Notes: generated by a model from the sequence alone, not told the origin. A DNA stretch of 64,000 bases from Candidatus Poribacteria bacterium (GCA_965242965.1 OZ251518.1:5024001-5088000); one strand, 5' to 3'; positions 22,913 to 53,612 are shown, counted from the stretch's first letter. Numbers and translations: made by a program.

Positions 22913-23384
22913 GTCCCACTTGGCTAGGCGGGTTGTCTTCTCATGCTGTTTTTTGTTCATCATAGTTGTCCAAACCTTTCGTTTTTCGCAAGGTGTTTTT
23001 CATGTCCCACTTAGATGAGGGTGTTTCATATCTCGATGTCTTCCCGGTAGGCGAGACCTCCTGGTCTCGATGCCCACCGTATCGGGACAAGGATGTCCCT
23101 CCTACCGTAAGGCATTGGGCCCACTTCTGTAGTTCGGGATCGCCTGATCCCGAACGAGTCAAGATCGCTTGGCAAATGTGCCAGAGCTTCAGACGATCTT
23201 GACCTATAGGGAGGATGCGGTCTGCCAACCAAACGCATGGCGAGGGACAGGTTTTCCCACCGCCCTACGTGAAGGAGAGGCATTTTTTTCCGCATCGCGG
23301 GGCCTATCACCGCGACGTTGGGCGATTTATGAAACACCCTCACTTGGATAGGCGGGTTGTCTTCTCAGTCCGTTTTTGTTCATT
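22883..23384. repeat. ~90-bp tandem duplication of the gene leader; second copy interrupted by a TIR element
   Basis: TTTTCGCAAGG(C/T)GTTTTTCATGTCCCACTT|GG(C/A)TAGGCGGGTTGTCTTCTCA..TTTTTGTTCAT is intact at 22883-22960 and split at 22978-23015 / 23343-23383. Confidence 0.85.
23016..23342. mobile_element. MITE-like TIR-bounded REP container
   Basis: TGAGGGTGTTTCATA...TATGAAACACCCTCA; flanks CTTAGA/CTTGGA. Confidence 0.8.
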
Positions 23385-24362
23385 TTAGAAAACCAAATTC
23401 ACCGACAACCGCTGCGTTGTGTTATCGCGGAAAACGCCGGTGAGCAGTTGGAATCCGTAGTCCAATTGCAAATGGGTGGCACTCATTGGGATTTTCAGAC
23501 TCGCGCCGAGGGCGATGGTGGCGGCGGAATCCACGCCGTTCTTCACGCCGTAACCGCCACGCGCGGCGATATTGTTACTGAACCAAACTTCCGCGCCGAC
23601 GCGGACATGCGTTTCTCCATCACGCAGTGCCACCTCCAGCGTCGCCAAACTAGATTTCAGTATGTTGCTTACTGTCGCGCCTTGCGCGCTCATTTCCGCG
23701 ATGGATGCAAGCCGATACGCCACCCCTGCTCGGATATTGCGAGGCACCGAATCGGTGAATGCGTCGGAGATGCTCATGTCCGCTGGCACGAGATTTTCCG
23801 CAGCAACGCCGATGCTCAGCCCGGCGACAGGCTTGGCAATTATCCCTATGTCCATTGAAATCGCCGAGGCGGAAGTTTGCGTAAAATAGTCGTTCCCGGC
23901 GACAAATTCGTTGGTTGCATCGAAGGCAGTGCTGAAACGTTTCAGGTTAGCACCGATGGAAAATTGCTTGAGGAACGCCTTGCTGTAAGAGAATACCAGC
24001 GTCTGCTCTCGATAAATCTCCGAATCCTCAGCCAATATGCCGATATGCGCGCCAATGGAACCGAGAATGCCAACCGGAACAACGCCGCTCAACGCCGTAT
24101 AAGTGATGAGCCCGTTGAATCGCTGCTCGCGTGTCGCTCCGACGTGAATTGCATCGAGGTAGCCTAATCCGGCTGCGTTGTAGTTTGCTGCGTTGCTATC
24201 GTCAGCGAGTGCGACGAATGCGCCGCCGAGTCCCAACGGACGTGCCCCGATGCCGATGTCGTTAAACGCCGCGAAGGTGGAACTCGCAAAGAGAATAAGC
24301 GCGAAAACTAGCACTAACATGCCTATTTTCGCCACGTTAGAGAATGTGTGTCTCTGCATCAT
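23385..24362 (-). CDS. PorV/PorQ-like outer-membrane beta-barrel protein
   Basis: GIGARPLGLGGAFVALADD...NAAGL N-terminal motif; alternating beta strands; C-terminal Phe. Confidence 0.8.
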   Translation of the reverse strand: MMQRHTFSNVAKIGMLVLVFALILFASSTFAAFNDIGIGARPLGLGGAFVALADDSNAANYNAAGLGYLDAIHVGATREQRFNGLITYTALSGVVPVGILGSIGAHIGILAEDSEIYREQTLVFSYSKAFLKQFSIGANLKRFSTAFDATNEFVAGNDYFTQTSASAISMDIGIIAKPVAGLSIGVAAENLVPADMSISDAFTDSVPRNIRAGVAYRLASIAEMSAQGATVSNILKSSLATLEVALRDGETHVRVGAEVWFSNNIAARGGYGVKNGVDSAATIALGASLKIPMSATHLQLDYGFQLLTGVFRDNTTQRLSVNLVF

Positions 24363-24454
24363 AGATGTTCTTGTGGAGGCGTGAACCTCCTTCGGTGCTC
24401 CTTTTTTCTTACAGATAGGTGCGGTTTTCAACCGCGCAGGCGTTAGGTGCGCGC

Positions 24455-25099
24455 TTACACATCGCGCCTACCAGAAAATCCTGTCATTGGCACAAAATTG
24501 ACACCGGTAACCGTTTTCGTCTCTGTTTCTCCCGCTGTCTTCTGAATCAAAAGCAGGTGTTGCACTATACTACCGACAGGAATAACCAACCTGCCGCCTT
24601 CGTCCAATTGGCGAACTAGCCGTTGCGGAATCTCCTTCGGTGCCGCTGCAACGAGGATAGCGTCATAAGGCGCGTGCTCTTGCCAGCCGTAATGCCCGTC
24701 CCCTTGTTTGAAACGGATATTCTGATAGTTGAAGGTTTCCGTTAACCTCACCTTCGCGCTCTCGGCAAGTTCAGGCAGAATCTCAACGGAATAGACTTCT
24801 CCCGCCAATTCCGCCAAAACGGCGGTTTGATAGCCGCACCCTGTGCCTATCTCAAGCACTTTTGATGTCGGCGTTAGCGCGAGCAGTTCTGTCATCAATG
24901 CCACAATGTAGGGCTGCGAGATTGTCTGTCCACACGCAATTGGGAGGGGACTATCCTGATACGCCGAGTTGACATACGCTGGCGTGACGAAGAGGTGGCG
25001 TTTCACCTTGCGCATGACAGCAAGCACCTGCGGGTTGCGGATACCGCGTTTCTCAAGTTGGTGTTGCACCATTTCCTGTCGTTGTATTGCAGCGTCCAT
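24455..25099 (-). CDS. pcm: Protein-L-isoaspartate O-methyltransferase
   Basis: RHLFV, AYQDSPLPI..GQTISQPYIV, VLEIGTGCGYQTA, APYDAI. Confidence 0.96.
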   Translation of the reverse strand: MDAAIQRQEMVQHQLEKRGIRNPQVLAVMRKVKRHLFVTPAYVNSAYQDSPLPIACGQTISQPYIVALMTELLALTPTSKVLEIGTGCGYQTAVLAELAGEVYSVEILPELAESAKVRLTETFNYQNIRFKQGDGHYGWQEHAPYDAILVAAAPKEIPQRLVRQLDEGGRLVIPVGSIVQHLLLIQKTAGETETKTVTGVNFVPMTGFSGRRDV

Positions 25100-25109
25100 C
25101 GCGGGCCCC

Positions 25110-27482
25110 CTAATCGCTCAGTGATACCTGATACGGCATCAAGAGAAAAAGCCTGTGCCGCATGATTTTTAGCAAACGGCTGTCCACAAAAGTGCGAGGC
25201 GTTGAAAGCAAACGATAGTTGTTGACGAGCTGTGATACCCATGTCTGTTTCGGAAGCCGGACGATGTCCACAGCCTGTTTCTCCAATCCTGCCTTCTCTT
25301 GCGCGATTTCAAGGGCGCGGCTTAACCCGCCGAGTTCATCGACAAGTCCGTTCTTTTTCGCCTGCGCGCCTGTCCAGATGCGCCCACGGCCGAGGTTATC
25401 TACCTCTTCCTTCGTTAACCTAGGCCGTCCGATAGCAACTTTTGTGATAAAATCGTCGTAAATCTCCGCAATTTGTCTGCGGACGATGTCCTGTTCTGCG
25501 GGGGGATAGTCGCCGTAATCGGTGTAAAAATCGGCGTGCTTGCCGCGTTTCAAGATTTCCTTACGGATACCGAATGTTTGGTAAAGTCCCTTGAAACTAT
25601 ACTTGCCGCCGATAACGCCGATAGAACCGGTGATGGTGCCGGGTTCAGCGACGATGACATTCGCCGGCGTAGCAATATAGTAGCCGCCCGATGCCGCCAC
25701 ATCTGCCATGGAAACGACGAGCGGTTTCTCTGCAGCGAGCAGCACAAGTTCACGCCACAAAATGTCTGCAGCCACAACGAGCCCACCCCCGCTGTCAATT
25801 CGCAACACGACTGCTTTTATTGCATCGTCTTCGCGCACACTGCGAATAGCGCGCGCAATTGTATCCGAACCCATCACCCGCGTGCCCATCAACGGCTCGG
25901 TGAAACTATCGCCTGTCATCATCAACCCTTCTGCCTCAATAATCGCAATCTTCGGCCGGGGCACTTGCCAATTGTGGACGTAAAGCCCGCTATTCGCATA
26001 CTCGCCGAGGGTGACTAATTCCGTGGCGGAATCGGTAAGGGCAGCCACGACATTCGGCAATTCGTCTTCATAGACGAGTCTGTCAACTAATTTGGCATCG
26101 CGCGCACCCCGCGCGGTATAAGGGCCGCCGTCAATCAAGTTTTTGACGGTTTCTGGTGTCCATCTGCTGTTTGCTCCACGGTTTGTAACTATCGCTGTTA
26201 CTAACTGCTCATAGAGTTCGTCAAGGATAACGTTCTGCACTTCGCGATGTGCTTCTGACATATCTCGCCGCGTGAACGTTTCCGCCGCGGATTTATACTT
26301 CCCAATCCGTTCAATATTTGCCTGGATGCCGAGCATATCCAACGCGTCTTTGTAAAACGCGTATTCGGCGCGCAGCCCGATGAGCCGCACCTCCGCCGAA
26401 GGGTGCATCAGAATCTTATCACATGCCGAGGCGACGATGTAATCCCCGGTAGAACAACTAGAGATATAACTGATAACGATGCGCCCGGACTCCTTGAAAT
26501 CAAGAATGGCATCACGCATTTCTTGCAGTTGTCCCATCCCGTAGCCGCTGCCGTTAATGCGGATAAGCACGCCCGCGACATCTTTGTCCCGCTTCGCGAT
26601 GCGCAGCGTTCGTTCCAGCGAACGCATGGACAACTCGAGAAACTTGCGCCGACGCGGAATGGCTCTTGTCTTCGGCGCGCTAGAGAATTGGAAATAACCG
26701 ACACCCGTTTGCGCGCTGTCCGCATCAAAACGGTTGTCTGTCCCCACTCCCCAATTCCCGATGTTGATACCGAAACGGACATCAAAACTCCTGTCGCTGT
26801 TCAACGTGCCGCGGAGCATCAACTCTCGGATAGGACGCAACTCCAGCGCGTATTGAAAGTCAACGCCTTCGATGCCCCGCGTTTTCTGCATATCAAGCGA
26901 GAAGGTTGCTCGCCACGTGCCAGGACGCAGCGCGATCCCTACGTCATAAGTGCGTCCCAACTTTTCGCCTAACAACTTCGGACGGTTCAGATTCCGAGTT
27001 ATCGCGCCGATTGAAAAATAACGGCGACGATACATCAATCCCAACGACAGCGAACGGAATGTGTCGTAACCCCGCACATCGGAATTTATCCAACTGTAAC
27101 TAGTGCCCCAGTAAAGCGCGCTCCCTAAATGCCGCCCGGTAGAGAGGCTATACCGGGTGAAGTCAATGTCGTCTGCCGCCGTTGCAAACTCCATGCTAAA
27201 TCCCGCGCCCGGGGTTGCGATGAAAAAAGCGTCATCGCCGGGCTGCGACTCACTCTGGTATGTCCGCAGGTAATAGAGGTTCAGCGCGCGGCCTGCGCCC
27301 AATCCCGCCGGATTGAAAAACGTCGCCAGGGCATCGTCACTCACGGCGACAGAACTCACCGGCAAGTGGGTGCGCGCCTTCGGCGGCGCAGCTATCGCGA
27401 TGCAGGCAAATAGCATACCACATACACTAGCGACCCAAATATAGCGTTTGCGAGCAGAACGTAAAACCATAAACAGCACCAA
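25110..27482 (-). CDS. sppA: Signal peptide peptidase SppA with N-terminal beta-barrel-like extension
   Basis: GKYKSAAE, LRIDSGGG, AASGGYY, TITGSIGV, GRIWTG.QA..NGLVDELGG; first ~270 aa beta-rich. Confidence 0.88.
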   Translation of the reverse strand: MVLFMVLRSARKRYIWVASVCGMLFACIAIAAPPKARTHLPVSSVAVSDDALATFFNPAGLGAGRALNLYYLRTYQSESQPGDDAFFIATPGAGFSMEFATAADDIDFTRYSLSTGRHLGSALYWGTSYSWINSDVRGYDTFRSLSLGLMYRRRYFSIGAITRNLNRPKLLGEKLGRTYDVGIALRPGTWRATFSLDMQKTRGIEGVDFQYALELRPIRELMLRGTLNSDRSFDVRFGINIGNWGVGTDNRFDADSAQTGVGYFQFSSAPKTRAIPRRRKFLELSMRSLERTLRIAKRDKDVAGVLIRINGSGYGMGQLQEMRDAILDFKESGRIVISYISSCSTGDYIVASACDKILMHPSAEVRLIGLRAEYAFYKDALDMLGIQANIERIGKYKSAAETFTRRDMSEAHREVQNVILDELYEQLVTAIVTNRGANSRWTPETVKNLIDGGPYTARGARDAKLVDRLVYEDELPNVVAALTDSATELVTLGEYANSGLYVHNWQVPRPKIAIIEAEGLMMTGDSFTEPLMGTRVMGSDTIARAIRSVREDDAIKAVVLRIDSGGGLVVAADILWRELVLLAAEKPLVVSMADVAASGGYYIATPANVIVAEPGTITGSIGVIGGKYSFKGLYQTFGIRKEILKRGKHADFYTDYGDYPPAEQDIVRRQIAEIYDDFITKVAIGRPRLTKEEVDNLGRGRIWTGAQAKKNGLVDELGGLSRALEIAQEKAGLEKQAVDIVRLPKQTWVSQLVNNYRLLSTPRTFVDSRLLKIMRHRLFLLMPYQVSLSD

Positions 27483-27510
27483 GCCAAAGCGTCAAAAGAG
27501 ATACATATCT

Positions 27511-27539
27511 ATTATACCACAAAACGGCGGAAATTGCAA
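27511..27539 (-). promoter_or_regulatory. sigma70-like promoter of the sppA-pcm operon
   Basis: TTGCAA-17bp-TATAAT. Confidence 0.65.
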
Positions 27540-27557
27540 CAAAAATGCGAATTTTAC

Positions 27558-28030
27558 CGAGGGAGTTTCATAAATCGATGCCTTCCCGGTAGGAGAGACC
27601 TCCCGGTCTCGATGCAATAGGTGGCGCGCCTCCCGGGGCCGCGCCAGCAGAAAGCCTCCCTTCATCGTAGGGCTTGGGCCCTCGGATGCCACACGCGCAT
27701 CCGAGCGGGTTCCCCTCGCCATCGTCCGCGCTGCGAAAAAAACGTCTCTTGTCATCGTAGGGCGAGGGCCTGTCCCTCGCCATCGTCCGCGCTGCGAAAA
27801 AAACGTCTCTGGTTCTCTTCAGATCCGTAGGACCTAATACGGCATTGTGGCGATAGAGATCGCGGGGGACAGGCCCCCGCGCTACGGTTGTCGAGCCCGC
27901 CTTCCTTTCACCGTAGGCGAGGGCCCTCGCCATCGTCCGCGCACTCCAACGATCGCGGGGAACAGGCCCCCGCGCTACGGTTGCCGAGGCCGCCTCCCTT
28001 TCATCGTAGGGCCCAAGCCCTACGATAAAA
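27558..28030. mobile_element. REP cluster with only a left TIR (one-ended container)
   Basis: GAGGGAGTTTCATAAATCG followed by GTAG-hairpin modules; no right TIR found. Confidence 0.65.
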
Positions 28031-28058
28031 ATAACGCCTTCCTTGCGCGGCGGAGAAC

Positions 28059-30488
28059 TCAAAATTCCACTGTCAGTCCGAGATACGGGATGATGGGAAA
28101 TTGCCCTACCTCTTCCACGCTGCCATCCTCAGGATTCGTAAATCGCATGACATTTCGCCGATTATAGGCGTTCAAAATTTCCAGGAACCCGCCTATCTTC
28201 CAACCGTCGAAATCCCATTTTTTGCTTATCCGCACATCCAACCGATGGTAGGATGGCAGCGCAATTAAGTCGTCATCTTCAGTTTCAAAGGGTAGTTTGC
28301 GCATCCCGCGCGTAACCGGATCTTGGATTAAGAAGATATCGGCGATTGGAACGTCGGATGTGCCGCTGGAATACTGCCACTTCGCCCCTATATCAAACGT
28401 CGGCGAGAAATTGTAACTCGCCACGATGCTGACGACGCTGGTGTTGTCAAAGAGGTAGGGTTGATACTCGGCTTCGGGATGCGCTCGGCGTTCCGCGTGT
28501 GTCCACGCATACGAAATCCAGCCGAAAAATTTATCGGTGATACGGTGCCGCAGGAACATCTCCGCGCCACCGACATACCCCACACCCTGATTGAGATACC
28601 CTTCGGCTTCATCCGGCGTTACCAAATCTGCCTGCGTTTTGTAATACCCCGCCAACTTAAGTTCGGTTTGAGAGGTGAGCTCCTGCTCCAATTCCACGAT
28701 GTAGTGGCTGGTGACGCTTGAGGTTAACGCCGGATTTCCGTCTTCCGCAAGCATTTCATTCGGTTTCGGGCTCTGTTCATACCGTCCGTAAGCGAGACGC
28801 AGGTCTGCACCACTCGGCATTTTGATGGCAAGACTGGCGCGCGGCTGCACCGAGATTTCGTCTGTTATGTTGAGGTAATCTAGCCGAACGCCCAGTGCCG
28901 CCGATAGAAATGAAGACGGTTCATATCGCGTTTGGAGGTAACCTTCGGCACGGCGAAACTGTTTGTTGAATTCGTCGCGAGTTTCCTCGGTCCGCGTCTC
29001 CTGTAAAAAAGTCCCTTCGCTGCCATCGGGTTCGTTCCTGAAGACAACTGCCTCGTCTCCATCCGCCCGAGCCTCTTCAAGCAATTCTCCCAGGTCTTCG
29101 CCTTCTGGCACTTCCGTTTCCTCGGTGACTGGCAGATTGGTGTAAGAAAAACTTGTCGCGGGGCTGATGGAAAAAAGAAACCCCGGTTCAAACTGAAGCG
29201 TCGGTGTGATTTTATATGACACGTCTTCGCGCAGCGTGTAAACGGGAACGTTCACTTGAATGTCATAGTGCGAATACTCAGTGGACTCCACTTCCCACTC
29301 ACCGTCTGGGCCCCGTGCAAAAGTCTCGTCTGTCACCAGATCGAAGTCAACGTTGAGAAAATTGTGGGAACGCGTGAGAGAGAGGTGTGAGGTAAGCTCT
29401 TCCGTGAAATGCGAACGGAGATGTATCCCTTGTGCCTCAAACCCGTTTTTGAAATAGGCAGAAGAAGACGAGCCTTCAACGCCTTCGGGGGTTGAAAGCG
29501 TGGTTTCAGAGTCTGCATCCGCTGCGATGATGTCAAATTCAAAATGATCGGCGGCACCAAAGGCGTTGAGCGTCAGGTGATGCTTCTCCGCCACGTCGTG
29601 GGCATATTTGAATTGGTAATCTGAAAAGTAGGGCCACACGTTATTTCCCTCTATGAACTGACCGGCCACGAGGTCAAGGTAACTCCGCCGTCCAGAGAGA
29701 TAAACATATCCCTTCTCGCCGATTTGTCCTTCCAACAGCCCCTCCGAATAGAGGATATTGAGGTTGAAAGTGCCGCTGAATGTCTCGTCTTCCAATTTAT
29801 CCCGCGACCGGATGTCAATCACCGTTTGCGCATCCAACCCGAATTCCGCGCCGTAGCCGCCGGCGTAGATGTGGATGTCGTCAATAATTTCGGAACTGAT
29901 AGTTGAGACAATTCCGCCGTAGTGGAACGGATATCCCATTGGTGTCCGATCGAAATAGATGAGATTGTCGCCCGGCGCGCTCCCACGGATATAGAGCGAG
30001 CCAACAAAATCGTTTGGAATGCCGATGCTCGGCAGCGTCATGAGGCCCTTAAGCGCATCGCCACCGGTGCCGGGAAGACGTAGCAACTCACTGCCCCGAA
30101 TCTCCTGCCGACTCACGGTAGGTGGCACGCGCGCGCCTTCAATGATAACCTTCTCAAGTTCAAAGATTTCGCCGAGGTAGACTTTCACTTGTGTTGTATC
30201 GCCCACCCGCACCTCCAGCGTGACTTCCTTTGCCTCGGTATAGGTAGGATGCGAGATGGATAACGTGTAAGTTCCGGGTGCAACCTCGGTGAACCAAAAC
30301 GTCCCATCTTCGTCGGAGGTTTGGTGTTCGTCGGTTTCAAGCAGATGCACATCGGCATCGGCTAACGGCGCGCCGGTAATTTGTTCAGCGACGGTGCCTT
30401 GAATTGTCCCGGTTGCGGCGGGTTCGGATTGGGCAAAAACGGCTACTGGCACTGTGAGAACCAGCAGCAGCCAAAAAAAATGTTTCAC
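28059..30488 (-). CDS. TonB-dependent receptor with N-terminal carboxypeptidase-regulatory-like domain
   Basis: Signal peptide, GTIQGTV..., plug LYIRGS..GDNL, GGYGAEFG, LPSYHRLDVR, NAYNRRN, C-terminal F. Confidence 0.92.
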   Translation of the reverse strand: MKHFFWLLLVLTVPVAVFAQSEPAATGTIQGTVAEQITGAPLADADVHLLETDEHQTSDEDGTFWFTEVAPGTYTLSISHPTYTEAKEVTLEVRVGDTTQVKVYLGEIFELEKVIIEGARVPPTVSRQEIRGSELLRLPGTGGDALKGLMTLPSIGIPNDFVGSLYIRGSAPGDNLIYFDRTPMGYPFHYGGIVSTISSEIIDDIHIYAGGYGAEFGLDAQTVIDIRSRDKLEDETFSGTFNLNILYSEGLLEGQIGEKGYVYLSGRRSYLDLVAGQFIEGNNVWPYFSDYQFKYAHDVAEKHHLTLNAFGAADHFEFDIIAADADSETTLSTPEGVEGSSSSAYFKNGFEAQGIHLRSHFTEELTSHLSLTRSHNFLNVDFDLVTDETFARGPDGEWEVESTEYSHYDIQVNVPVYTLREDVSYKITPTLQFEPGFLFSISPATSFSYTNLPVTEETEVPEGEDLGELLEEARADGDEAVVFRNEPDGSEGTFLQETRTEETRDEFNKQFRRAEGYLQTRYEPSSFLSAALGVRLDYLNITDEISVQPRASLAIKMPSGADLRLAYGRYEQSPKPNEMLAEDGNPALTSSVTSHYIVELEQELTSQTELKLAGYYKTQADLVTPDEAEGYLNQGVGYVGGAEMFLRHRITDKFFGWISYAWTHAERRAHPEAEYQPYLFDNTSVVSIVASYNFSPTFDIGAKWQYSSGTSDVPIADIFLIQDPVTRGMRKLPFETEDDDLIALPSYHRLDVRISKKWDFDGWKIGGFLEILNAYNRRNVMRFTNPEDGSVEEVGQFPIIPYLGLTVEF

Positions 30489-30511
30489 AATGAGTTCTCC
30501 TTGTGATGAGG

Positions 30512-30604: not shown

Positions 30605-30660
30605 TGGTTTGTCTCCTTTAAATTGACGTAAAGATGAAATCGGAATTAAACGTTGGATAT

Positions 30661-34780: not shown

Positions 34781-35083
34781 TGAGGGTGTTTCATAAATCG
34801 CTCAACGTCGCGGGGACAGGCCCCGCGCTACGGTGAAAAAACGCCGCCCTTTCACGTAGGGCGAGGGCCTGTCCCTCGCCATGCCACACGCGCAGGCGAG
34901 AGGGTTTCCCTCGCCGGGCGTTTTGCTGTCAGACCGCATCACCCCTGTAGGTCAAGATCGCCTGATCTTGACCTGTTCGGGATCGGGCGATCCCGAACTA
35001 CAGAGGTGGGCCCGAGGGCTTCTGGTATTCGACAGCCTTCCAAGGCGGGATAAATACCGAAACGGAGTTATGAAACACCCTCA
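34781..35083. mobile_element. MITE-like TIR-bounded REP container with perfect target-site duplication
   Basis: TGTTAT|TGAGGGTGTTTCATAA...TTATGAAACACCCTCA|TGTTAT. Confidence 0.85.
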
Positions 35084-37641: not shown

Positions 37642-37769
37642 AGGGATTCTCCTTCGTCTGTCTGCATCAGGATTTACAAGATTATAGGATTAGCAGGATT
37701 ATAGCATATTCGCGCGAACGGTAGACCGAGACATGGCGAGGGACGTTCTGTCAAGAAGATGTCCGGATA

Positions 37770-38125
37770 CCGTAGCGCGGGGGCCTGTCCCCCGCGAGCG
37801 TGAAGAAACCGTCCGGTTCCCGTAGCGCGGGGGCCTGTCCCCCGCGAACGTCCCGTAGGAGAGCCCTCCCGGTCTCGATTCCCGCGAACGTCCGATGGCG
37901 CGCGGTAGAAGAGTCAGACCTCCTCCCCCCCTGTAGGTCAGGATCGCCTGATCCTGACCCGTTCGGGAGCAGGCACTCCCGAACTACAGAGTTATGAAAC
38001 ACCGTCCGGTTACCGTAGCGCGGGGGCCTGTCCCCCGCGAGCGTCCCGTAGGAGAGACCTCCTGGTCTCGATGCAAGTGATGTCCCTGTAAGAAAGCCCT
38101 CCCGGTCTCTCCTACTGGGGAAACG
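37770..38125. repeat. REP-like module cluster
   Basis: Three CGTAGCGCGGGGGCCTGTCCCCCGCGA copies plus GAGACC and GATC-type hairpins; internal TTATGAAACACC TIR remnant near 37992. Confidence 0.85.
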
Positions 38126-38148
38126 GAATCGTTTCTGCAGAGGGCATC

Positions 38149-39621
38149 TCAGAGATATGTCTGCTCCCCGCCATAATGCCGCGCCGCCTTCGGACGCTCA
38201 TCTATCTGCCACGGCAACTTCACCGGCATAAGCCCATCCGTAAAATAGGCATCTGTTACCTGCCAGAATTGCAAACGCGGGTATCTTTTGCCGTTATGCT
38301 CAATTGTCCCTTCTGCTTCGGCGAGATTGCGCATCCCGCGCGTGACAGGGTGCAGCGTAATGAAAATACCCATGGCGGCGTTCGCGTCTTGCATCGCCGT
38401 GCGGAACGCGCGCACCTGATTCAGGTTCAAGCTCCTCCCCGATTTCACTTCGGCGATAACCGGCAGCTGCATCGCCGCGCGGCTGTTTTCCCAAAGCAGC
38501 ACCTTCCCCGTGCCATCAAACCCGCCATCGTTGCTGTTCGCCGTCGGAGAAAGTCCCAATCTCGTGACGGCCCAGTTTGCAAAATCGTGCGGATTCTGCT
38601 CGGCGAGGAGGATGGCATCCTGACATGTCGTCGGGTATCCCTCAATGTCATAATCCACTTTGGGGGTAAGTCCGTGACGTTCGCGCAGCCGCCGTTCCAT
38701 CGGTTCCAAAGCGAGCACCGTCAAATCGATGCCTATCCAGTGCCTGCCAAGTCCATGCGCGGCATCTAACGCCGTACCACAGCCACAAAACGGATCGAAG
38801 ATGATGTCGCCGGGGTTAGAGGAGGCTTTGATGATGCGTTCCAAGAGCGCGAGCGGCTTTTGTGTCGGATATCCAAGTCCTTCCTTTGAGACATTGCGAA
38901 TGGGAGGAATTTCCCAAACATCATCGCACAATCTCCCAAGTGGGTTCAACTTTGCCTCATACTTGCCAGCGAACACCACAGGTCTCTCATAACGCTTTAC
39001 CGTTTTCGCGTCATAAGGTTGACGAACAGCATCGGCGTTAAATGTCCAACTATCGGTTTTGACATACCGAAGGAGGACATCGTGCTTCCGTGCAAAGTCC
39101 CGCTTGGAATTACCGGTGTGTTTGTAGTGCCAGATAATCTCGTTGCGGAACCGCGGATGCCCGAAAATCGTATCCATTATCACCTTCAGATAATGACTCG
39201 CGTGCGGGTCGCAGTGCAGATACACACTCCCGTCCGGCGTTAGTAAACGCCAAATCTCCGCGAGGCGCGGTGCCATGAAGGCGAGATAGGCACGCATCGA
39301 ATCCGCATCATTTTTGCCCTTATACCCCCCCTTCAAAATATTGTCAAATCCTGTTAAACAATCCGACAAATTGCCCATGGTTTCAACCAGTTCAGGGTGC
39401 CGCCCATCGTAGTGAAGGACAGCGGCTTGGTTGTCGCGCGCGGTGTCGTCCCATCGCCAGATGTCGTCAAACGCTTTGCGTTGCGCTTTTGAGCCGGCGA
39501 GGAAGATGTTATAGTTGCGGCCGCTGTTAAACGGCGGATCGAGGTAACAGGTGTGGTAGCGCGCGGTTTGCATCTCGCGCATCACCTTGAGGTTATCGCC
39601 GAAGTAAAGTGTGTTTCTCAT
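38149..39621 (-). CDS. N6/N4 DNA methyltransferase fused to C-terminal restriction-endonuclease-like (Mrr-type) domain
   Basis: YLDPPFNS (motif IV), GYPTQKP..LL.RII, FDPFCGCGT (motif I); C-terminal DGGFDG...AEVKSG. Confidence 0.88.
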   Translation of the reverse strand: MRNTLYFGDNLKVMREMQTARYHTCYLDPPFNSGRNYNIFLAGSKAQRKAFDDIWRWDDTARDNQAAVLHYDGRHPELVETMGNLSDCLTGFDNILKGGYKGKNDADSMRAYLAFMAPRLAEIWRLLTPDGSVYLHCDPHASHYLKVIMDTIFGHPRFRNEIIWHYKHTGNSKRDFARKHDVLLRYVKTDSWTFNADAVRQPYDAKTVKRYERPVVFAGKYEAKLNPLGRLCDDVWEIPPIRNVSKEGLGYPTQKPLALLERIIKASSNPGDIIFDPFCGCGTALDAAHGLGRHWIGIDLTVLALEPMERRLRERHGLTPKVDYDIEGYPTTCQDAILLAEQNPHDFANWAVTRLGLSPTANSNDGGFDGTGKVLLWENSRAAMQLPVIAEVKSGRSLNLNQVRAFRTAMQDANAAMGIFITLHPVTRGMRNLAEAEGTIEHNGKRYPRLQFWQVTDAYFTDGLMPVKLPWQIDERPKAARHYGGEQTYL

Positions 39622-39633: not shown

Positions 39634-40181
39634 TGTGGGTGTTTCATAACTCGTTGTTATCAAAATGGTTTCGTGAGACTTCCGAACAATTTTGTTTCCG
39701 CGGTAGGCGAGACCTCCTGGTCTCGATGCCACGGGGGACAGGCCCCCGCGCTACGGTAGCCAGAACGGCTTCTTTTCCCGTAGGGCGAGGGCCTGTCCCT
39801 CGCCATGCTGCGGTCTATCAAACGCTCGCGGGAGACAGGCCCCCGCACTACGGTAGAGGAGGCGGCAGCGCGCTTGATCCGTTCGGGATTAGGCGAGCCC
39901 GAACTACAGTCTCTGGGGCACGCGAACGATCGCGGGGGACAGGCCCCCGCGCTACGGTAGCCAGAACGGCCTCGCTTACCGTAGGGCGAGGGCCTGTCCC
40001 TCGCCATGCTGCGGTCTATCAAACGATCGCGGGGGACAGGCCCCCGCGCTACGGTAGCCAGAACGGTTTCGCTTACCGTGCGGGAGCAATCGAGGCCGGG
40101 AGGTCTCTCCTACCGGGAAAACAGAATCGTTCGGGGTGTCACGAGACTAGTTTTACAACAACGACTTATGAAACACCCTTA
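39634..40181. mobile_element. MITE-like TIR-bounded REP container with long (~90 bp) imperfect inverted ends
   Basis: TGTGGGTGTTTCATAACTCGTTGTT... / ...AACAACGACTTATGAAACACCCTTA; flanks AGTGACC/AGTAACC. Confidence 0.8.
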
Positions 40182-42981: not shown

Positions 42982-43613
42982 TGAGGGTGTTTCATAAATC
43001 GCTCAACGTCGCGAGGACAAGTCCCCGCGCTATTGCCGGTAGGAGAGACCTCCTGGTCTCGATGCAATACCGTAGGAGAGCCCTCCCGATCTCAATTTCT
43101 TCCCGGTAGGAGAGCCCTTGGGTTTCGATGTTCCCGTAGCGCGGGGGCCCTCGGATGCCATACGCGCATCCGAGCGGGTTTCCCTCGCGTTGTCCATCGT
43201 CAAGATGCCGTCTTAGGTCCTTTAAGTCCTACATGTCTATAGATACACGTGTCGGGCCATTTTCAAGGTCCTTTAGGTCCTTAATAAAAACCGCGCGGCC
43301 CTGGCAAAATCTATTAAGGACCTAAAGGACCTTAGTGTTCTTCGCGTTCGCGCGGGCTATAGACATTCAGGTCCTACGGACCTGAAGAGAACAAGAGACG
43401 TTTTTTCCGTAGCGCGTGTGGAAACCTGCGAGGGCCCTCGCCCTACGATGAAGGGGCTTTTTGCCGCCGCGGTCCCGGTAGGCGCGCCGCCCTATTACAT
43501 TGAGACCGGGAAGTCTCTCCTACCTCATCGAGACCAGGAGGTCTCTCCTACGGGGGCATCGCTGGCATTGAGACAGGGAGGGCTTTCCTATACAGATTTA
43601 TGAAACACCCTTG
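42982..43613. mobile_element. MITE-like TIR-bounded REP container nested in a family F repeat
   Basis: CTTAAG|TGAGGGTGTTTCATAAATC...GATTTATGAAACACCCTTG|CTTACG. Confidence 0.85.
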
Positions 43614-47296: not shown

Positions 47297-47319
47297 AGCT
47301 TGTTCCTCGCGTGCTGGCC

Positions 47320-47722
47320 CGCGTGCGCGTAGCGCGAGGGCCTGTCCCTCGCGATCGTTGTGTTAACCAAGCCCTGTCCGCGTGCGCGTAGCGCGAGGGC
47401 CTGTCCCTCGCGATCCTGGCATGGCGGGGGACAGGCCCCCGCCCTACGTTAATAGAAACCTATCCGTCTATCCGTAGCGCGAGGGCCTGTCCCTCGCGAT
47501 CCTGGCGTTAACCGCGTCCTATCCGCGTGCCCGTAGCGCGAGGGCCTGGCCCTCGCGATCGTTGCATGGCGGGGGACAGGCCCCCGCCCTACGGTAATAA
47601 AAACCTGTCCGTTTATCCGTAGCGCGAGGGCCTGTCCCTCGCGATCGTGGTGTTAACCGCGCCCTGTCCGCGTGCCCGTAGCGCGAGGGCCTGTCCCTCG
47701 CGATCCGTGGCGTTAACCGAGA
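47320..47722. repeat. Tandem REP-like array between mod and res
   Basis: Six CGTAGCGCGAGGGCCTG(T/G)CCCTCGCGATC copies plus two inverted GGCGGGGGACAGGCCCCCGCCCTACG; alternating ~59/87-bp spacing. Confidence 0.9.
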
Positions 47723-47726
47723 CACG

Positions 47727-49490
47727 TTATTCATCCATCACAGGATAGATGTTGTAAGGCAATTGACAAAACGTAATCCCCATCGCCGTCAAATCCTTCT
47801 GACTCATGAACTTATGCGCGGCCCAAACGTATGCCTTCTTCCCATCCTTCTTGCACTGCGCCGCAATCCGCGCCGCCCGATGTCCATCTAACGCCGCGGC
47901 GTTGCTCTCTAAAAAGGCGAGATTCGGTTCATAGATGAGATAGAACCGGTGGGCATCGGTTTCGCCGAAAAGATAGTCATCATGCAGCGCGATACCCTCA
48001 AGCGAACTGCCCGTTGCGATGTAGGCGATATAGTTCGCCAAGGTCTCGTAAGCCGGTAAGGTTTCACCCGAGAGCATGCCTTCCTCGTCAATGGGCTCGC
48101 CAAGTTCGCAGTAGGTAAATGAGCCACCGAGGCCCTGCCGCAGGATTGCCTCTCTCGCAGTCGGCACGCCGTTGATGACGCGTCGGATGCGTTCCGCGGT
48201 GATGTCATCGGCGTAGTCTTCGCACTCAATGAGGATGAACTTGCGATTGCCGCCATCTGCTTTGTTAAGAGCAAGAACAGCATGCGCCGTAGTGCCACTG
48301 CCAGCAAAAGAGTCAAGGACGATGTCGTTAGGACCGGTTACTGCCTCAAAGAGCGGCTTTAACACCTCTTCGTCTTTCGGAAAAGGGAAAGGCTTGCCGA
48401 GTAGAGAACGTAATCGCTTTGTCGCAGCGCGTCCATCTCTGTAGAAAACGCTGTAAGGTATTTCGTATTCAGATTCTTTCAGGTAAACTTTAACGGTTAA
48501 CACAGACGTTTCATCAGGTCCAAACCGAATCCGATTGTCAGCAATGAGTGCGTTCATTCGCTGTTCCGTATAAACCCAACCGCGCGAAGGAACAACGCAC
48601 GCCTTGCCTGTCACCGGATGGAGGACTGGATACCGTGCGCCGTTACCTCCCGGTGCAGAGGCATTAGATGCATGATAAGGTCCACGAATATCCACATGGC
48701 AGTAATGTCTATGCCGCTTGGCTGGATGGTTATCGGGGAGCCCCTTAAACCATTCTGCCAATTCGGCTTCAATTTTCGCAAAGTCTTGTCCATGTTTCCG
48801 TTGGAGTGCGGCGTGTTTTTTGTAGATGTCGTCCAATCCCTGTTTTCGGACGCGCCACGTAGTTCCCGATTGATTCAGGAATTCGTGGTTTTTGAGGTAG
48901 CACAGGATGTAGTCGTGCGAATTGGAGAAGAGTTTTGCGTTGTTTTTGCGTCCGGCCGCCCAGACAAACTGCCCGACGAAATTGCCGGCGGGAAACATCC
49001 GCTGCGCGTCGAAAATCTCATCCATGATAGCGCGAAGGAGATGCACCTCATTGTCATCAATAGAGATAAACATCACGCCATCCTCGGCGAGTAGCTCGCG
49101 TAAGAGATGCAGGCGCGGCCACATCATGCACAACCACTTGTCATGACGTTCTAAGTCTTCAACGTCAATAGGGCTGTTTGTCGTCAACCACCGCTGCATG
49201 AGTGGGCTGTTGACGTTATCGTTGTAAACCCAGCCTTCGTTGCCTGTGTTGTAAGGCGGATCGATGTAGATGCACCTGATTTTGCCGGCGTATTTTGGGA
49301 GGAGTGCCTTGAGTGCGTGCAGATTATCGCCGTGGATGATAAGATTATCCTCCAATAAAGGCGATCTGACCCCCCCTTCATAATGTGCATTTTGAAGAGA
49401 TTTGGCGGCATCTATCTCCAACGTGCGGCAAGGCACGGTGAGGTGATGAGAATAGATAAATTGCTTGCCTTTGAAATCGAGTGTAGGCAT
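47727..49490 (-). CDS. mod: Type III modification methyltransferase Mod
   Basis: IIHGDNL.ALK, IYIDPPYNTG, FISIDDNE, FPFPK, VLDSFAGSGTTAHAV. Confidence 0.93.
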   Translation of the reverse strand: MPTLDFKGKQFIYSHHLTVPCRTLEIDAAKSLQNAHYEGGVRSPLLEDNLIIHGDNLHALKALLPKYAGKIRCIYIDPPYNTGNEGWVYNDNVNSPLMQRWLTTNSPIDVEDLERHDKWLCMMWPRLHLLRELLAEDGVMFISIDDNEVHLLRAIMDEIFDAQRMFPAGNFVGQFVWAAGRKNNAKLFSNSHDYILCYLKNHEFLNQSGTTWRVRKQGLDDIYKKHAALQRKHGQDFAKIEAELAEWFKGLPDNHPAKRHRHYCHVDIRGPYHASNASAPGGNGARYPVLHPVTGKACVVPSRGWVYTEQRMNALIADNRIRFGPDETSVLTVKVYLKESEYEIPYSVFYRDGRAATKRLRSLLGKPFPFPKDEEVLKPLFEAVTGPNDIVLDSFAGSGTTAHAVLALNKADGGNRKFILIECEDYADDITAERIRRVINGVPTAREAILRQGLGGSFTYCELGEPIDEEGMLSGETLPAYETLANYIAYIATGSSLEGIALHDDYLFGETDAHRFYLIYEPNLAFLESNAAALDGHRAARIAAQCKKDGKKAYVWAAHKFMSQKDLTAMGITFCQLPYNIYPVMDE

Positions 49491-49547
49491 GCGGTTTTCC
49501 TGATGTTGTCCTCGCTGTTATCCGCAACAGCGAGGACAGGTTGGAAG

Positions 49548-50111
49548 TTATACGGTGTTTTGGTTCTCGCGCGCTTTGTCGAGATTGATGGGGAGGCCGG
49601 CATTCTTCATTTCCCGCCCTAGTTTCGTCTGCCATCCATTGGCAGTGTCCATTGGCACATAGACTAGGCCGTGGATATCTGATGGCCGTTCAACACCTTC
49701 TTTGTATAGCACGCAAATTCGCTCGCTCCCTAGTTTGCTCAAAAAATAGCCGAGTTCAAAGATAACGTGTTGAGAGGCTCGGGGTTTGTGTTCCTCCACC
49801 GCTTCATTTTTCGAGGCACCGATGTCGTCGGGGGTTAGCAAGACAACGGCAAACCCTACATCGGTTGAGATTTCCTCAAACGCTTCAAAGATGGATTGCC
49901 CGTCGCTAGGTTGTTCGTGAAAGCTGACAGATCTCAATCCTAATTCGTCAACGAACCGTTTGACAGTTGTTTTCGTTTCATCGTCACGTCCATGCACGAT
50001 GAACACCGCGTCGACGGAGGCACGCTCCGGTTTTTTGGGAGATACCGTTTTGCCACGCACAAATGGTGGATTTAGGCGATGAGTCTCCACAACGTGATTC
50101 TTCGCGTTCAT
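49548..50111 (-). CDS. Stand-alone TIR-like nucleotide-binding protein (CAP12/Pycsar-type TIR)
   Basis: VFIVHGRD, FAVVLLTPDDIG, RASQHVIFELGYF, PSDIHG..Y. Confidence 0.85.
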   Translation of the reverse strand: MNAKNHVVETHRLNPPFVRGKTVSPKKPERASVDAVFIVHGRDDETKTTVKRFVDELGLRSVSFHEQPSDGQSIFEAFEEISTDVGFAVVLLTPDDIGASKNEAVEEHKPRASQHVIFELGYFLSKLGSERICVLYKEGVERPSDIHGLVYVPMDTANGWQTKLGREMKNAGLPINLDKARENQNTV

Positions 50112-50204
50112 AAGTTTTCTCCATTCCCGCCCTGATGCATCGATGCATCGCGGAAGTGCCGAGTGACAATCGCCACTGAAAAGATAAAGTTAAATACTGA
50201 ACCA

Positions 50205-50234
50205 ATTATAGCATTAATCCACAAATGAAGTCAA
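50205..50234 (-). promoter_or_regulatory. sigma70-like promoter upstream of TIR-mod-res
   Basis: TTGACT-18bp-TATAAT. Confidence 0.55.
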
Positions 50235-50342
50235 ATTCTATCCGAAAATCCAGAACGATTCAGTTATCCCCTCGCTATAGGTTGCGCTCGCCCATCGCAA
50301 CCGGGTCAAGAGTGTTTTGGCAATCGTGCCAGAACTTCAGAA

Positions 50343-50795
50343 CTATAAAAGTCTGTTGAGATCAACAGATAGTCCTGCCCGGTTCATCTCTCGTGCCAAC
50401 TTGATTTGCCATCCACTGAATTCATCCATTGGGACATAGACTACGCCGTGGATATCCGAGGGGAGTTCAACGCTCTCTTTGTGGAGGACACAGACTTTCT
50501 CTGGGAGTTCCGATAAGAAATAGCCGAGTTCCAAGACAACGTTTTGGCGAGCCCTTGGTCTTTGTTCTGCCGGTTTATCTTTTCGCGAGCCAATATCGTC
50601 GGGCGTTAGCAAAACAATGGCAAAACAGGCCTCGGATGCGTGTAGTTTAAACTTATCAATGATCGTTCGTCCTTCGCTTGGCTGCTCGTCAAGGACGATT
50701 GGTTCTAAGTTTAAACCAACTTTATCCAGAAAAATAACGACAGCGAGTTTTGCCGCTTCGTCATGCCCATGCACGATAAACACTTTTTCATTCAT
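50343..50795 (-). CDS. Stand-alone TIR-like nucleotide-binding protein (second copy)
   Basis: VFIVHGHD, FAIVLLTPDDIG, RARQNVVLELGYF, LPSDIHGVVY. Confidence 0.88.
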   Translation of the reverse strand: MNEKVFIVHGHDEAAKLAVVIFLDKVGLNLEPIVLDEQPSEGRTIIDKFKLHASEACFAIVLLTPDDIGSRKDKPAEQRPRARQNVVLELGYFLSELPEKVCVLHKESVELPSDIHGVVYVPMDEFSGWQIKLAREMNRAGLSVDLNRLL

Positions 50796-51055
50796 TAGCG
50801 TTCCTCAATTAATGCTGTATCCTCTTTGCGGGGGCGCGTGTTGGCGATTTGGATCGGGACTTCCTGATACCCAGTTTCCGCATCTCGGATAGCTTCTTCT
50901 CGATTGGATTCTATTGTTTCGCGAAGCGTGATTTCCAGCGTCTCCAGCAAAGCATCACGAGTGCATTCCTGGCAATTGACACCGGGAATCTCTTGTATCC
51001 AACCGAGCCACCATCCATCACTCTGTTGGATAACGGCTGTGTAAGTTTGGGACAT
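50795..51055 (-). CDS. HicB-like antitoxin
   Basis: YTAVIQQSDGWWLGWIQEIPGVNCQE.TR..LLE.L; AAGGAG RBS. Confidence 0.8.
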   Translation of the reverse strand: MSQTYTAVIQQSDGWWLGWIQEIPGVNCQECTRDALLETLEITLRETIESNREEAIRDAETGYQEVPIQIANTRPRKEDTALIEER

Positions 51056-51077
51056 TTCTTGCTCCTTTTCGACGTGC

Positions 51078-51325
51078 CGCGTGCCCGTAGCGCGAGGGCC
51101 TGTCCCTCGCGATCGCCCGCATGGCGGGAGACAGGCCCCCGCCCTACGTTGATAGAAACCTGTCCGCGTGCCCGTAGCGCGAGGGCCTGTCCCTCGCGAT
51201 CGCCCGCATGGCGGGAGACAGGCCCCCGCCCTACGTTAATAGAAATCTGTCCGCGTACCCGGGGCGCGAGGGCCTGTCCCTCGCGATCGCCCGCATGGTG
51301 GGGGACAGGCCCCCGCCCTACGTTC
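51078..51325. repeat. Three tandem ~87-bp REP doublets between the HicB-like genes
   Basis: Each unit is CGTAGCGCGAGGGCCTGTCCCTCGCGATCGCCCGCATGGCGGGAGACAGGCCCCCGCCCTACG, with variants in the third unit. Confidence 0.9.
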
Positions 51326-51344
51326 CAAAGACGTTATCCATCTG

Positions 51345-51536
51345 TCACACGATGGATGTTGTTTGTTTTGCTTGCTGCGCGTCATAGTCCAAGATATCAA
51401 GAAGCGCGGATTGCAGACTTTCCAATAGTTCTTCGCGCGTCCGTTCTTGGCAATTCACGCCAGATATTTCACGGATCCATCCAATCCACCATTCGCCGGT
51501 GTATTGGATTTGCGCGGTATAATGTGACATTTCCAA
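51345..51536 (-). CDS. HicB-like antitoxin (short second copy)
   Basis: YTAQIQYTGEWWIGWIREISGVNCQERTREELLESL; GAGGAG RBS. Confidence 0.75.
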   Translation of the reverse strand: MEMSHYTAQIQYTGEWWIGWIREISGVNCQERTREELLESLQSALLDILDYDAQQAKQTTSIV

Positions 51537-51596
51537 TCTCCTCTGTTAGTTCGTGAAATTATTATCATATAAATGCACGGTTTTGTCCAATTTAAA

Positions 51597-52045
51597 TGAG
51601 AGTGTTTCATATCTCGTTGTTGTCAAAATGGTTTCGTGATACCCTGAACGCTTCCGTTTCCCCGGTAGGAGAGCCCGCCTGGTCTCGATGCAACCTCCCC
51701 GTAGGAGAGCCCTCCTGGTCTCGACACGCCGGTAGGCATTGGGCCCACCTCTGTAGTTCGGGATCGCCTGATCCCGAACGGGTCAAGATCAGGCGATCTT
51801 GATCTACAGGGCCTGGCGCACACACGATGGCGAGGGACAGGCCCTCGCCCTACGTGAAGGGCAGCGTTTTTTTTCGTAGTGCGGGAGGCTGCCCCCGCGA
51901 GCGTTGGGATACGCGTGCACGCACGATGGCGGGGGATAGGCCCTCGCCCTACGATAAAATCGAGACCAGGAGGTCTCTCCTACGGGGACATCGCTTGCAC
52001 CGAGACCTGGACGGCGCGCCGACACGGATTTATGAAACACCCTCA
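51597..52045. mobile_element. MITE-like TIR-bounded REP container with mismatched flanks
   Basis: TGAGAGTGTTTCATA...TTATGAAACACCCTCA; flanks TTTAAA vs GGTAAC. Confidence 0.78.
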
Positions 52046-52110
52046 GGTAACCAATAAACATGATAATTCAATTATCGCATTAATTGCGCAATTTTGTCAA
52101 GTTAAAAATG

Positions 52111-53283
52111 TCAAACCCGCACGCCGAGTGCAAACGCATCAATCGCCTGCCGGATATCCGCATCTCTATGCGATGCCATCACCGTAACGCGCAAGCGGCT
52201 TGTCCCCGATGGCACAGCCGGCGGCCGAATCGCCGGGGCAAATACGCCTGCCGAAAACAACGTCTCCGCAACTTGCACTGCGCGCTGCGGCGTGCCAAGC
52301 ACCACAGGTAAGATTTGCGTTTCACTCGGCAGGAGTTCAAACCCTAACGCCACTAATGCAGTTTTAAGGTGTTTCGCGTGCGAAAGTAGGCGGCACCGCA
52401 ACTCTGGCGTGGAACGCATTACGTCTAGTGCAGCTATCGCGGCGGCTAATGTCGCGGGCGGGAGCCCTGTCGTGAAGATGAAGCCGCGTGCCCGGTTAAT
52501 GAGCAACTCAATTAAGGCAGTGCTTCCCGCTATATAGCCGCCAAGTCCGCCGATTGCCTTGCTGAGCGTGCCCATCTGGATAAGGAACTTTTCCTGTTGC
52601 AACCCGAAATGTTCAACGGTGCCGCCGCCATGTTCGCCTAAAACACCGAACCCGTGCGCGTCATCTACCAATACCATCGCATTATGTTGCGCGGCGACTT
52701 CGCAAATATCGGGCAGCGGCGCGATGTCGCCATCCATGCTGAAAACGCCATCGGTGATAATCAACCGTCGCTGAAAGCCCGCGGCTGCCGCCAATAATTC
52801 CTTCAGATGCGCGACATCGCAATGCCGATAGACTTGCTTCGTGGCGCGGCTGAGTCGGCATCCGTCTATGATACTCGCGTGGTTGAGTGCATCGCTCAAA
52901 ATCAAGTCGCCTTCGCCGGCAAGCACTGGGATAGTGCCGGTATTGGCGGCGTAACCTGAACTGAAGACGAGAGCCGCCTCCGTGCCTTTCGCCTGTGCGA
53001 GGGCGGCTTCCAGCGTCGCATAGAGTTCGCTGTTCCCGGAAATGAGGCGTGAGCCGCTCGCACCTGTGCCGAATGCAAGCGTCGCCTCCACCGCAGCTTC
53101 CAGCACTTTTGGGTGTGTGCTTAAACCGAGGTAGTTGTTCGAGGCAAGATTGATGACTTCGCGGCCATCAAGGACAATTCTGCCAGTCGGCGCGCTCATC
53201 ACGGCGCGAAGGTGGCGTGATAAACCTGCCTGTTTAAGGGCTGCGTATTCTGCTTCTAACCAATCGTCAGATAGATATGACAC
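52111..53283 (-). CDS. bioF: 8-amino-7-oxononanoate synthase
   Basis: LASNNYLGL, GASGSRLISG, FSSGYAAN, NHASIIDG, VFSMDGD, DDAHG, GTLSKA, IRPP.VP.GTSRLR. Confidence 0.92.
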   Translation of the reverse strand: MSYLSDDWLEAEYAALKQAGLSRHLRAVMSAPTGRIVLDGREVINLASNNYLGLSTHPKVLEAAVEATLAFGTGASGSRLISGNSELYATLEAALAQAKGTEAALVFSSGYAANTGTIPVLAGEGDLILSDALNHASIIDGCRLSRATKQVYRHCDVAHLKELLAAAAGFQRRLIITDGVFSMDGDIAPLPDICEVAAQHNAMVLVDDAHGFGVLGEHGGGTVEHFGLQQEKFLIQMGTLSKAIGGLGGYIAGSTALIELLINRARGFIFTTGLPPATLAAAIAALDVMRSTPELRCRLLSHAKHLKTALVALGFELLPSETQILPVVLGTPQRAVQVAETLFSAGVFAPAIRPPAVPSGTSRLRVTVMASHRDADIRQAIDAFALGVRV

Positions 53284-53315
53284 GGTAGTGTTCCTAAAGA
53301 TTCATTTCGTTTAAA

Positions 53316-53612
53316 TGAGGGTGTTTCATAAATCAATGTCTTCCCGGTAGGAGAGACCTCCCGGTCTCGATGCAATAGGGCGGCGCGCCTACTGGGGCAG
53401 CGGCGGCAGAAAGCCCCTTGAAAAAACGTCTCTTAGGTCCGTAGGACCTAAAACGCCATTTCTTGCCGATGGCGATCGCGGGGGACAGGCCCCCGCGCTA
53501 CGATAAAAAACGGTTCTTGAGCCATCGCGGAGGACAGACCTCCGCGATACGGGAACATCGAGACCGGGAGGTCTCTCCTACCGGGAAGCCATCGAGATAT
53601 GAAATACCCTCA
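53316..53612. mobile_element. MITE-like TIR-bounded REP container (~55-bp inverted ends)
   Basis: TTTAAA|TGAGGGTGTTTCATA...TATGAAATACCCTCA|TCTAAA. Confidence 0.82.

Follow-up and report, generated by a model that had tools for sequence, protein, structure and literature searches.

The window analysed here is a 64,000-nucleotide stretch (C1:5024001-5088000) of the two-contig, 5.70-Mb genome of a Candidatus Poribacteria bacterium (assembly 94.7% complete), hereafter the source genome. Between positions 23016 and 53612, counted from the first base of the window, it contains six short elements (E1 to E6) that are bounded by inverted copies of a 15-bp end, TGAGGGTGTTTCATA, and filled with GTAG-headed hairpins of the repetitive extragenic palindromic (REP) type. 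An original prediction, made from the window alone, had described these six elements, a one-ended copy at 27558 and five pairs of matching or near-matching flanks. The elements were recovered at those positions with 0–2 mismatches in their termini, the one-ended copy is present with 2 mismatches, the interiors consist of GTAG hairpins as described, and the five flank pairs are correct, comprising one exact 6-mer, three one-mismatch 6-mers and one one-mismatch 7-mer. A second one-ended copy, absent from the original prediction, is included in the following list.

23016 to 23342, no strand assigned: E1, 327 bp, two-ended, ends with 0 mismatches; flanks CTTAGA/CTTGGA
27558 to 28044, plus strand: one-ended copy in which a left end with 2 mismatches leads into a REP hairpin array of ~470 bp; no right end
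34781 to 35083, no strand assigned: E2, 303 bp, a member of the 68-copy main subfamily; exact duplication TGTTAT
37993 to 38007, minus strand: second one-ended copy, a right end with 2 mismatches on the edge of a REP array (37700-38148)
39634 to 40181, no strand assigned: E3, 548 bp, at least 8 REP hairpins; flanks AGTGACC/AGTAACC
42982 to 43613, no strand assigned: E4, 632 bp, REP hairpins and a palindromic module of ~190 bp; flanks CTTAAG/CTTACG
51597 to 52045, no strand assigned: E5, 449 bp; no recognisable target duplication
53316 to 53612, no strand assigned: E6, 297 bp; flanks TTTAAA/TCTAAA

[quoted passage not shown] We consider it highly likely that they form a two-tier system, in which MITEs of an IS982-like, DDE-type IS carry the REP hairpins of a second mobile system as cargo. 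The genomes used for comparison were two of the same genus (G001 and G002), one of a different genus of the same family (G022) and, for counts of the ends, 40 relatives. The window region is syntenic in G001 and G002, with ~80–92% identity over most aligned blocks.

Inverted ends and target sites

The end TGAGGGTGTTTCATA has 15 matches in the window at no more than two mismatches, compared with 0.06 expected (100 shuffles, largest value 1); the match at 522 is probably due to chance. In the whole source genome, 983 matches were found at this threshold (450 free of mismatches, 377 with one and 156 with two), whereas a reversed-pattern control yielded 0 exact, 0 one-mismatch and 1 two-mismatch match. 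The ends are mostly paired, in line with the original prediction. Consecutive ends in plus-then-minus orientation are spaced 100–1500 bp apart in 311 of 380 cases, whereas the same spacing is found for 56 of 379 minus-then-plus pairs and for 32 of 171 and 27 of 163 pairs in the two remaining orientations. This organization corresponds to 312 two-ended elements, with a median length of 380 bp and a total of 131,657 bp, and to 387 one-ended copies. At no more than one mismatch, 827 ends are present in the source genome versus 0–15 in each of the 40 relatives, and the expansion of the ends is a lineage-specific burst.

The proposal that at least three sub-terminal end types occur in mixed pairings is borne out by the genome-wide pairing table. 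The types pair in many combinations but non-randomly: the alpha type is found with the beta type 65 times, alpha/alpha pairs are rare, and beta/beta is not among the 40 commonest pairings listed. The sub-terminal pieces themselves are 86–97% end-associated, with 11 of 204, 3 of 107 and 5 of 37 copies located far from any end. Long end pairs were considered as candidate autonomous copies and rejected. Among 26 pairs of at least 750 bp, 14 exceed 1.2 kb, and 13 of these 14 are unrelated ends around ordinary host DNA. By eye, none of six large reading frames in the long pairs looks like a transposase; their products resemble a CTP synthase, a membrane transporter, a helicase-like protein and others of this sort. 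Only the pair at C1:54310-57213, which is described below, is flanked by a duplication.

Exact flank duplications are present at 120 of the 312 two-ended elements (6 bp in 83, 7 bp in 33 and 8 bp in 4), and 60 more of the 312 have duplications with one mismatch. Shuffled pairs of left and right flanks gave a mean of 2.3 exact duplications (maximum 7) and a mean of 19.0 with one mismatch. The flank similarity noted in the window therefore holds genome-wide, exceeding that of shuffled pairs ~50-fold for exact duplications. The duplications are AT-rich, and the sequence logo of the DNA outside the ends reads A.TTAAn. The original prediction had also named orthologous, single-copy empty targets as a point on which it could be checked; clean targets of this kind are found in G001 for E1 (a single TTTAGA) and E4 (a single ATTACG). 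At the locus examined for an insertion common to the source genome and G001, which would have revealed a change of cargo at a fixed site, none was present; the insertions of the two genomes at that locus are independent and lie 500 bp apart.

The parent insertion sequence and the REP system

An intact IS with the same ends, which the original prediction had suggested looking for, is present in G022, where the ends enclose seven elements, each precisely 1,109 bp long. At six of these copies the duplication can be read on both flanks (GATAAT, ATTAAT, ACTAATT, ATTAAAG, ATTATC and GATAAC), and among the four parsed, same-orientation copies that were compared, three have the very sequence of the first; two others lie in the opposite orientation. 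Each copy encodes a 332-aa protein (P0001) that matches the Pfam family DDE_Tnp_1_3 (8e-10, 39.3 bits; cut-off 27) and also DDE_Tnp_1. Members of the IS982 family, as described in ISfinder, are ~1 kb in length and have a single transposase gene and short duplications of variable length. The parent IS, with its 1,109 bp, one 332-aa gene and duplications of 6–7 bp, would fit these ranges. One of the sub-terminal types of the MITEs resembles its left end.

Homologues of P0001 comprise 1,329 proteins at E≤0.001. The best 120 of these 1,329 are 73–94% identical to it, and the organisms named for them are exclusively Candidatus Poribacteria, the proteins being annotated as 'hypothetical protein'. 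A scan of public genomes with the end joined to the beta sub-terminal piece returned 0 matches. The same scan with the end and the first sub-terminal bases returned at least 31 loci, 30 of them, among the matches listed, from Candidatus Poribacteria. Among those matches, most of the readable loci look like right ends of full-length IS copies, and only one (L064) is a two-ended, REP-bearing MITE. At E≤1e-20, a P0001-type transposase was found in 10 of 41 related genomes and in 0 of the 3 genomes of this genus. Searches of the source genome (94.7% complete) with the PF13612 and PF01609 profiles gave no match above cut-off, and the genome-wide searches placed no match to P0001 or to the Pfam families inside the window, at which no separate transposase scan was aimed. 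A relic was found at C1:2371347-2371747, where one end lies beside two short pieces of transposase sequence, one of them interrupted by a stop codon. The intact parent IS thus appears, from the assembled sequence, to have been lost from the source genome and to survive there only as this relic.

The second system is represented by a single intact gene for a REP-associated tyrosine transposase (RAYT; 154 aa, C1:3147499-3147963), the kind of gene that the original prediction had proposed to search for. Its product matches the NCBIfam model REP_Tyr_transpos (NF047646) with 120.6 bits (cut-off 80) and TnpArep in PDB entry 4er8 at 1.6e-4. On both sides the gene is flanked by arrays of GTAGTTCGGGAGC-type hairpins, and the same hairpin family is carried as cargo by the main MITE subfamily. 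A RAYT above cut-off is present in 22 of the 41 related genomes. Another Y1 match in the source genome belongs to an IS605-like element (C1:3124157-3125711; L001 267-1821, minus strand), in which a 408-aa TnpB-type gene lies beside a Y1 TnpA gene broken by two TGA stops.

A simple scan detected 6,657 GTAG-plus-hairpin units of several families in the source genome, located between genes at the loci that were inspected. Of these units, 1,070 (16%) lie inside two-ended elements, amounting to ~3.4 per element, and 84% lie outside. Fifteen elements are without a scan-detected GTAG hairpin; the eight that were inspected all hold imperfect hairpins. In contrast to the sub-terminal pieces, which are bound to the ends, the linkers of the cargo are often free of them: 26–49% of linker copies are remote from the ends, and 184 of 475 copies of the C/E junction, 41 of 142 of the mid linker and 54 of 208 of the A-B spacer lie far from any end. 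The cargo modules are thus independent elements, which the DDE element has copied as well.

The loops of two different REP families hold a nested 29-bp hairpin of the CTCGGATGC...GCATCCGAG type, whose orientation with respect to the REP is fixed. This hairpin has 531 copies genome-wide, examples in the window being 34872-34906 (in E2) and 27700-27740, and occupies two positions in the main subfamily, in 17 and 11 of the 68 members. The carriers gave no signal of forming a clade within this subfamily (165 and 360 of 500 shuffles reached the observed value), a result that is uninformative under a star radiation. The nested hairpin looks like a third tier of nesting.

Transport of cargo and alternative explanations

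The original prediction allowed that the MITE either ferries REP mosaics or serves as a preferred landing pad for them. An all-against-all comparison supports the former, since one cargo order recurs at many loci, and leaves the latter as a minor process only. For 119 of the 312 elements a partner was found that covers at least 90% of both, and these elements fall into clusters of 68, 11, 5, 5, 4, 4 and fewer members. The consensus of the 68-copy main subfamily is 269 bp long and reads: end, beta piece, inverted REP doublet, linker, REP A, spacer, REP B, alpha piece, end. Exact duplications of 6 or 7 bp flank 27 of the 68 members and differ between loci.

The strongest single case for ferrying lies outside the window, at C1:54310-57213 (L044 1511-4414). 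This 2,904-bp element is bounded by one alpha end and one IS-like end, and its passenger, a 588-aa ankyrin-repeat plus dockerin gene with an apparent promoter of its own, lies between REP arrays. It is flanked by the duplication TTTAAG, and its precise empty sites read TTTAAA (a single copy) in G001 and TCTAAA in G002. With IS ends, a passenger gene, a duplication and an empty site, and without a transposase, the element is a mobile insertion cassette (MIC). A copy of the ankyrin gene with 76% identity lies elsewhere in G001.

If the MITEs were landing pads only, small REP-free MITEs would have come first, REPs would then have entered them preferentially by means of RAYT, and the cargo would never have been ferried. 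Private REP-sized insertions in ~7 of the 68 main-subfamily members are consistent with such entry, as are a main-subfamily copy from the same genus that is without the REP A/B pair (L041), a REP-free 181-bp MITE with the same ends in another genus (L043) and shorter versions of ~165 bp in the source genome that hold one REP doublet. However, independent entry cannot give the same four-REP order and linkers at 68 loci with differing duplications. Moreover, REP islands near ends are barely richer than those without ends (3.2–4.0 versus 2.8 hairpins per island), and it is clear from the 2.9-kb gene cassette that long cargo is moved by the ends. We therefore regard this explanation as improbable: gain of REPs in place occurs but is minor compared with ferrying.

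The converse proposal, that the REPs originate from the MITEs, would make the end-less islands decayed MITEs and the DDE element the main vehicle of the REPs. It draws on the end association of most copies of some modules, as reflected in the linker counts given above, and on the 387 one-ended copies, which show that ends are frequently lost. By contrast, 1,744 of 2,267 REP hairpin islands have no end within 120 bp, and a REP doublet beside E2 was gained without ends relative to G001. G002, furthermore, has a single end match yet contains REP hairpins at the spacers examined, and RAYT is more widespread among the 41 related genomes than the transposase (22 versus 10). These observations make an origin of the REPs from the MITEs very improbable.

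HUH enzymes of the IS200/IS605 type make no target duplication. A third explanation, in which the inverted ends would belong to tyrosine-transposase 'TIRtron/TIRYT' elements moved by a RAYT-like enzyme, is hardly credible for this reason and because the RAYT gene of the source genome is flanked by GTAG hairpins and not by the ends, which in relatives flank a DDE transposase gene and generate the same 6–7 bp duplications, even though inverted repeats do flank RAYT-like genes in moderately abundant families in the part of the published account concerned (Di Nocera et al. 2013, PMC3733652).

Several observations weigh against the two-tier system that we favour. No recognisable duplication is present at 132 of the 312 elements, a large share of the family consists of one-ended copies that form no tidy container, and a clean empty site is missing for four of the six window elements, whose counterpart spacers in the other genomes are diverged or rebuilt. 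The best NCBIfam match of P0001, transpos_IS982, scores 55.2 bits, below the cut-off of 130, and the parent is therefore named IS982-like and not assigned to the family. The transposase stretches of the relic are only 45–46% identical to P0001, such that the enzyme that drove the burst is not itself seen. Only one REP family flanks the RAYT gene, which leaves unproven that a single RAYT serves all REP families. The copies of the main subfamily are old, with a median identity of 91% to their consensus. Finally, all of the evidence is comparative, and transposition itself was never observed.

The two-tier system very probably operated as follows. A Poribacteria-specific, IS982-like DDE IS inserts at AT-rich nTTAAn sites and duplicates 6–7 bp of the target. 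Its transposase would recognise only the ~18-bp inverted ends, and anything between two inverted ends would therefore move along. In this lineage, the interiors were filled with the genome's own REP hairpins and REP doublets forming hairpins (REPINs), whose GTAG-headed units are predicted substrates of RAYT, an HUH tyrosine transposase, and also spread on their own. As passive cargo of the DDE element, the REP mosaics were copied to hundreds of new sites, with the transposase, since lost, probably acting in trans. New versions of the cargo arose by three routes: entire REP units were gained or lost, the 29-bp hairpin became nested in the loops of REPs, and end modules were exchanged as a whole. 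RAYT probably made the changes in the REPs and recombination probably swapped the end modules; successful versions were then amplified as subfamilies.

In the same genus, the sites that correspond to these insertions are empty, and the single G001 copy examined for its position does not share an orthologous site; it follows that the burst is younger than the split of these species. It has since stopped, and with the transposase lost from the genome, the copies are now decaying fossils.

A tentative and rather unlikely extension is that the REP cargo is not neutral, in that hairpin-rich interiors might be better DDE substrates, for example by folding the ends together, or better tolerated between genes. 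Such an effect would explain why hundreds of REP-filled copies exist, whereas the one REP-free version seen is a single copy in another genus. REPINs would then gain a second, RAYT-independent route of spread, in a mutualism of two unrelated classes of selfish DNA whose ends also transport host genes encoding eukaryote-like proteins.

Each component of this system is of a known kind, and the combination, the scale and the loss of the parent transposase are new. The comparisons that follow refer to the relevant portions of the cited papers. Among the closest known systems is MITECca01 of a Cardinium endosymbiont, whose parent is ISCca4 of the IS982 family and which, with 169 mostly intergenic copies, is the commonest mobile element there (PMC9769881). 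Both are lineage-specific MITEs from an IS982-type IS. However, MITECca01 is described as derived from its parent IS and kept up by that parent's intact copies (PMC9769881), whereas the parent of the Poribacteria elements has been lost, their interiors consist of REP hairpins of another system, and they comprise several hundred copies with many versions of the cargo.

The cargo resembles the REPs, REPINs and bacterial interspersed mosaic elements (BIMEs) described together with RAYT in its GTAG-headed, GC-rich hairpins, inverted doublets and mosaic clusters, and in the location of RAYT between REP arrays (PMC3733652, PMC3337134, PMC3184786). REPs and BIMEs are without terminal inverted repeats and target duplications, whereas the Poribacteria arrays are bracketed by DDE-type ends with duplications of 6–7 bp; in the same literature, MITEs and REPs are treated as separate classes (PMC3733652, PMC3184786). 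In BrickBuilt, a MITE of Porphyromonas gingivalis, the interior is likewise another kind of repeat, present in variable unit number between fixed leader and tail ends (PMC4596501). Unlike that interior, the Poribacteria cargo consists of interspersed hairpins with a transposase of their own, in hundreds of copies.

MICs and solo inverted repeats ('solo IRs') are recognised IS-related objects (PMC3129680). The Poribacteria elements are like MICs in that transposase-less IS ends bracket passenger DNA that is moved in trans, a design that the 2,904-bp ankyrin element matches exactly, and the counterparts of solo IRs are the one-ended copies; the Poribacteria elements differ from MICs in that most of their cargo is another mobile repeat family and not a gene. 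In the portions of the literature covered, supplements aside, nothing was found that describes DDE-type MITEs with RAYT-type REPs as their filling, nor anything on MITEs in Poribacteria. MIC231 of the Bacillus cereus group is an example of a mobile insertion cassette.

The spread of REPs is still argued from indirect evidence, and the DDE transposon that copied ready-made REP mosaics to hundreds of intergenic spacers is a second vehicle for it; for some REP doublets, the majority of genomic copies are associated with transposon ends. Two inverted ends of this IS are able to move arbitrary DNA, as they did with the gene of an ankyrin-repeat protein, a type of protein linked to sponge symbiosis. 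In terms of annotation, the elements account for much of the repeat-filled intergenic DNA in this Poribacteria lineage.

Individual elements of the window

The original prediction held that no two interiors are alike. At full length and inside the window this stands; genome-wide it does not, as E1 and E2 have 7 and 48 full-length partners, respectively, and even the window elements have large blocks in common. E1, a member of the 11-copy cluster, has REP hairpins directly after one end, and its other three quarters match the main subfamily; from its sequence, it looks like the main-subfamily design with one end module replaced. Directly to the left of E1 (~22890-23015) lies a tandem duplication of ~80 bp that is absent in G001 and G002 and holds a second, unfilled copy of the target, CTTGGC followed by the same downstream sequence.

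The spacer orthologous to 27558-28044 contains three different repeat sets in three genomes of the same genus (490, 358 and 147 bp), the content in G001 and G002 being shorter, which indicates that intergenic repeat islands turn over quickly. In E2, the order is end, alpha sub-terminal piece, REP B, spacer, REP A with the nested 29-bp hairpin, linker, REP doublet, beta sub-terminal piece and end. G001 contains neither E2 nor the adjacent end-less REP doublet, which is present only in the source genome; its spacer differs in other respects as well.

E3 has, at both of its ends, the sub-terminal type with a resemblance to the parent IS's left end. At this site G001 has a single AGTAACC at the right junction, and its left side differs because a 2.5-kb stretch that includes a methylase gene is absent there. 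This gene (38149-39619, minus strand) encodes a protein in which an N6/N4 DNA methylase is joined to a nuclease domain of the Mrr type. Together with the REP array and E3 it makes up the 2.5-kb stretch, which is absent at the corresponding sites of G002 (17 bp) and G001 (724 bp). The methylase/Mrr gene has 9 full or partial copies in the source genome, 5 of which have a MITE end within 160 bp.

The palindromic module of E4 (43190-43400) belongs to a TAGGTCC / AGGACCTAAAGGACCT family, whose 16-mer occurs 549 times genome-wide, and the module itself is also present in two copies in the 2.9-kb cassette; GTAG REPs are therefore not the only cargo. For E5, the best partner covers 0.66 of the element, and the orthologous spacers are too diverged to be read. 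The spacer of E6 contains an unrelated REP family in G001 and G002 and, like that of E3, is too much rebuilt to be read.

Metagenome contigs from four public runs of four studies, two of the runs being a sponge metagenome and a metagenome, match the window elements at enormous summed depth. No contig bridging an empty allele was found among the matches listed, in which contigs break at the ends and cannot show absence. The contigs diverge into heterogeneous, AT-rich sequence exactly at 34781, 35083 and 53612, and the elements thus account for the breaking of short-read assemblies exactly at these ends. At the end of E6, contigs from all four runs match through base 53612 and then diverge.

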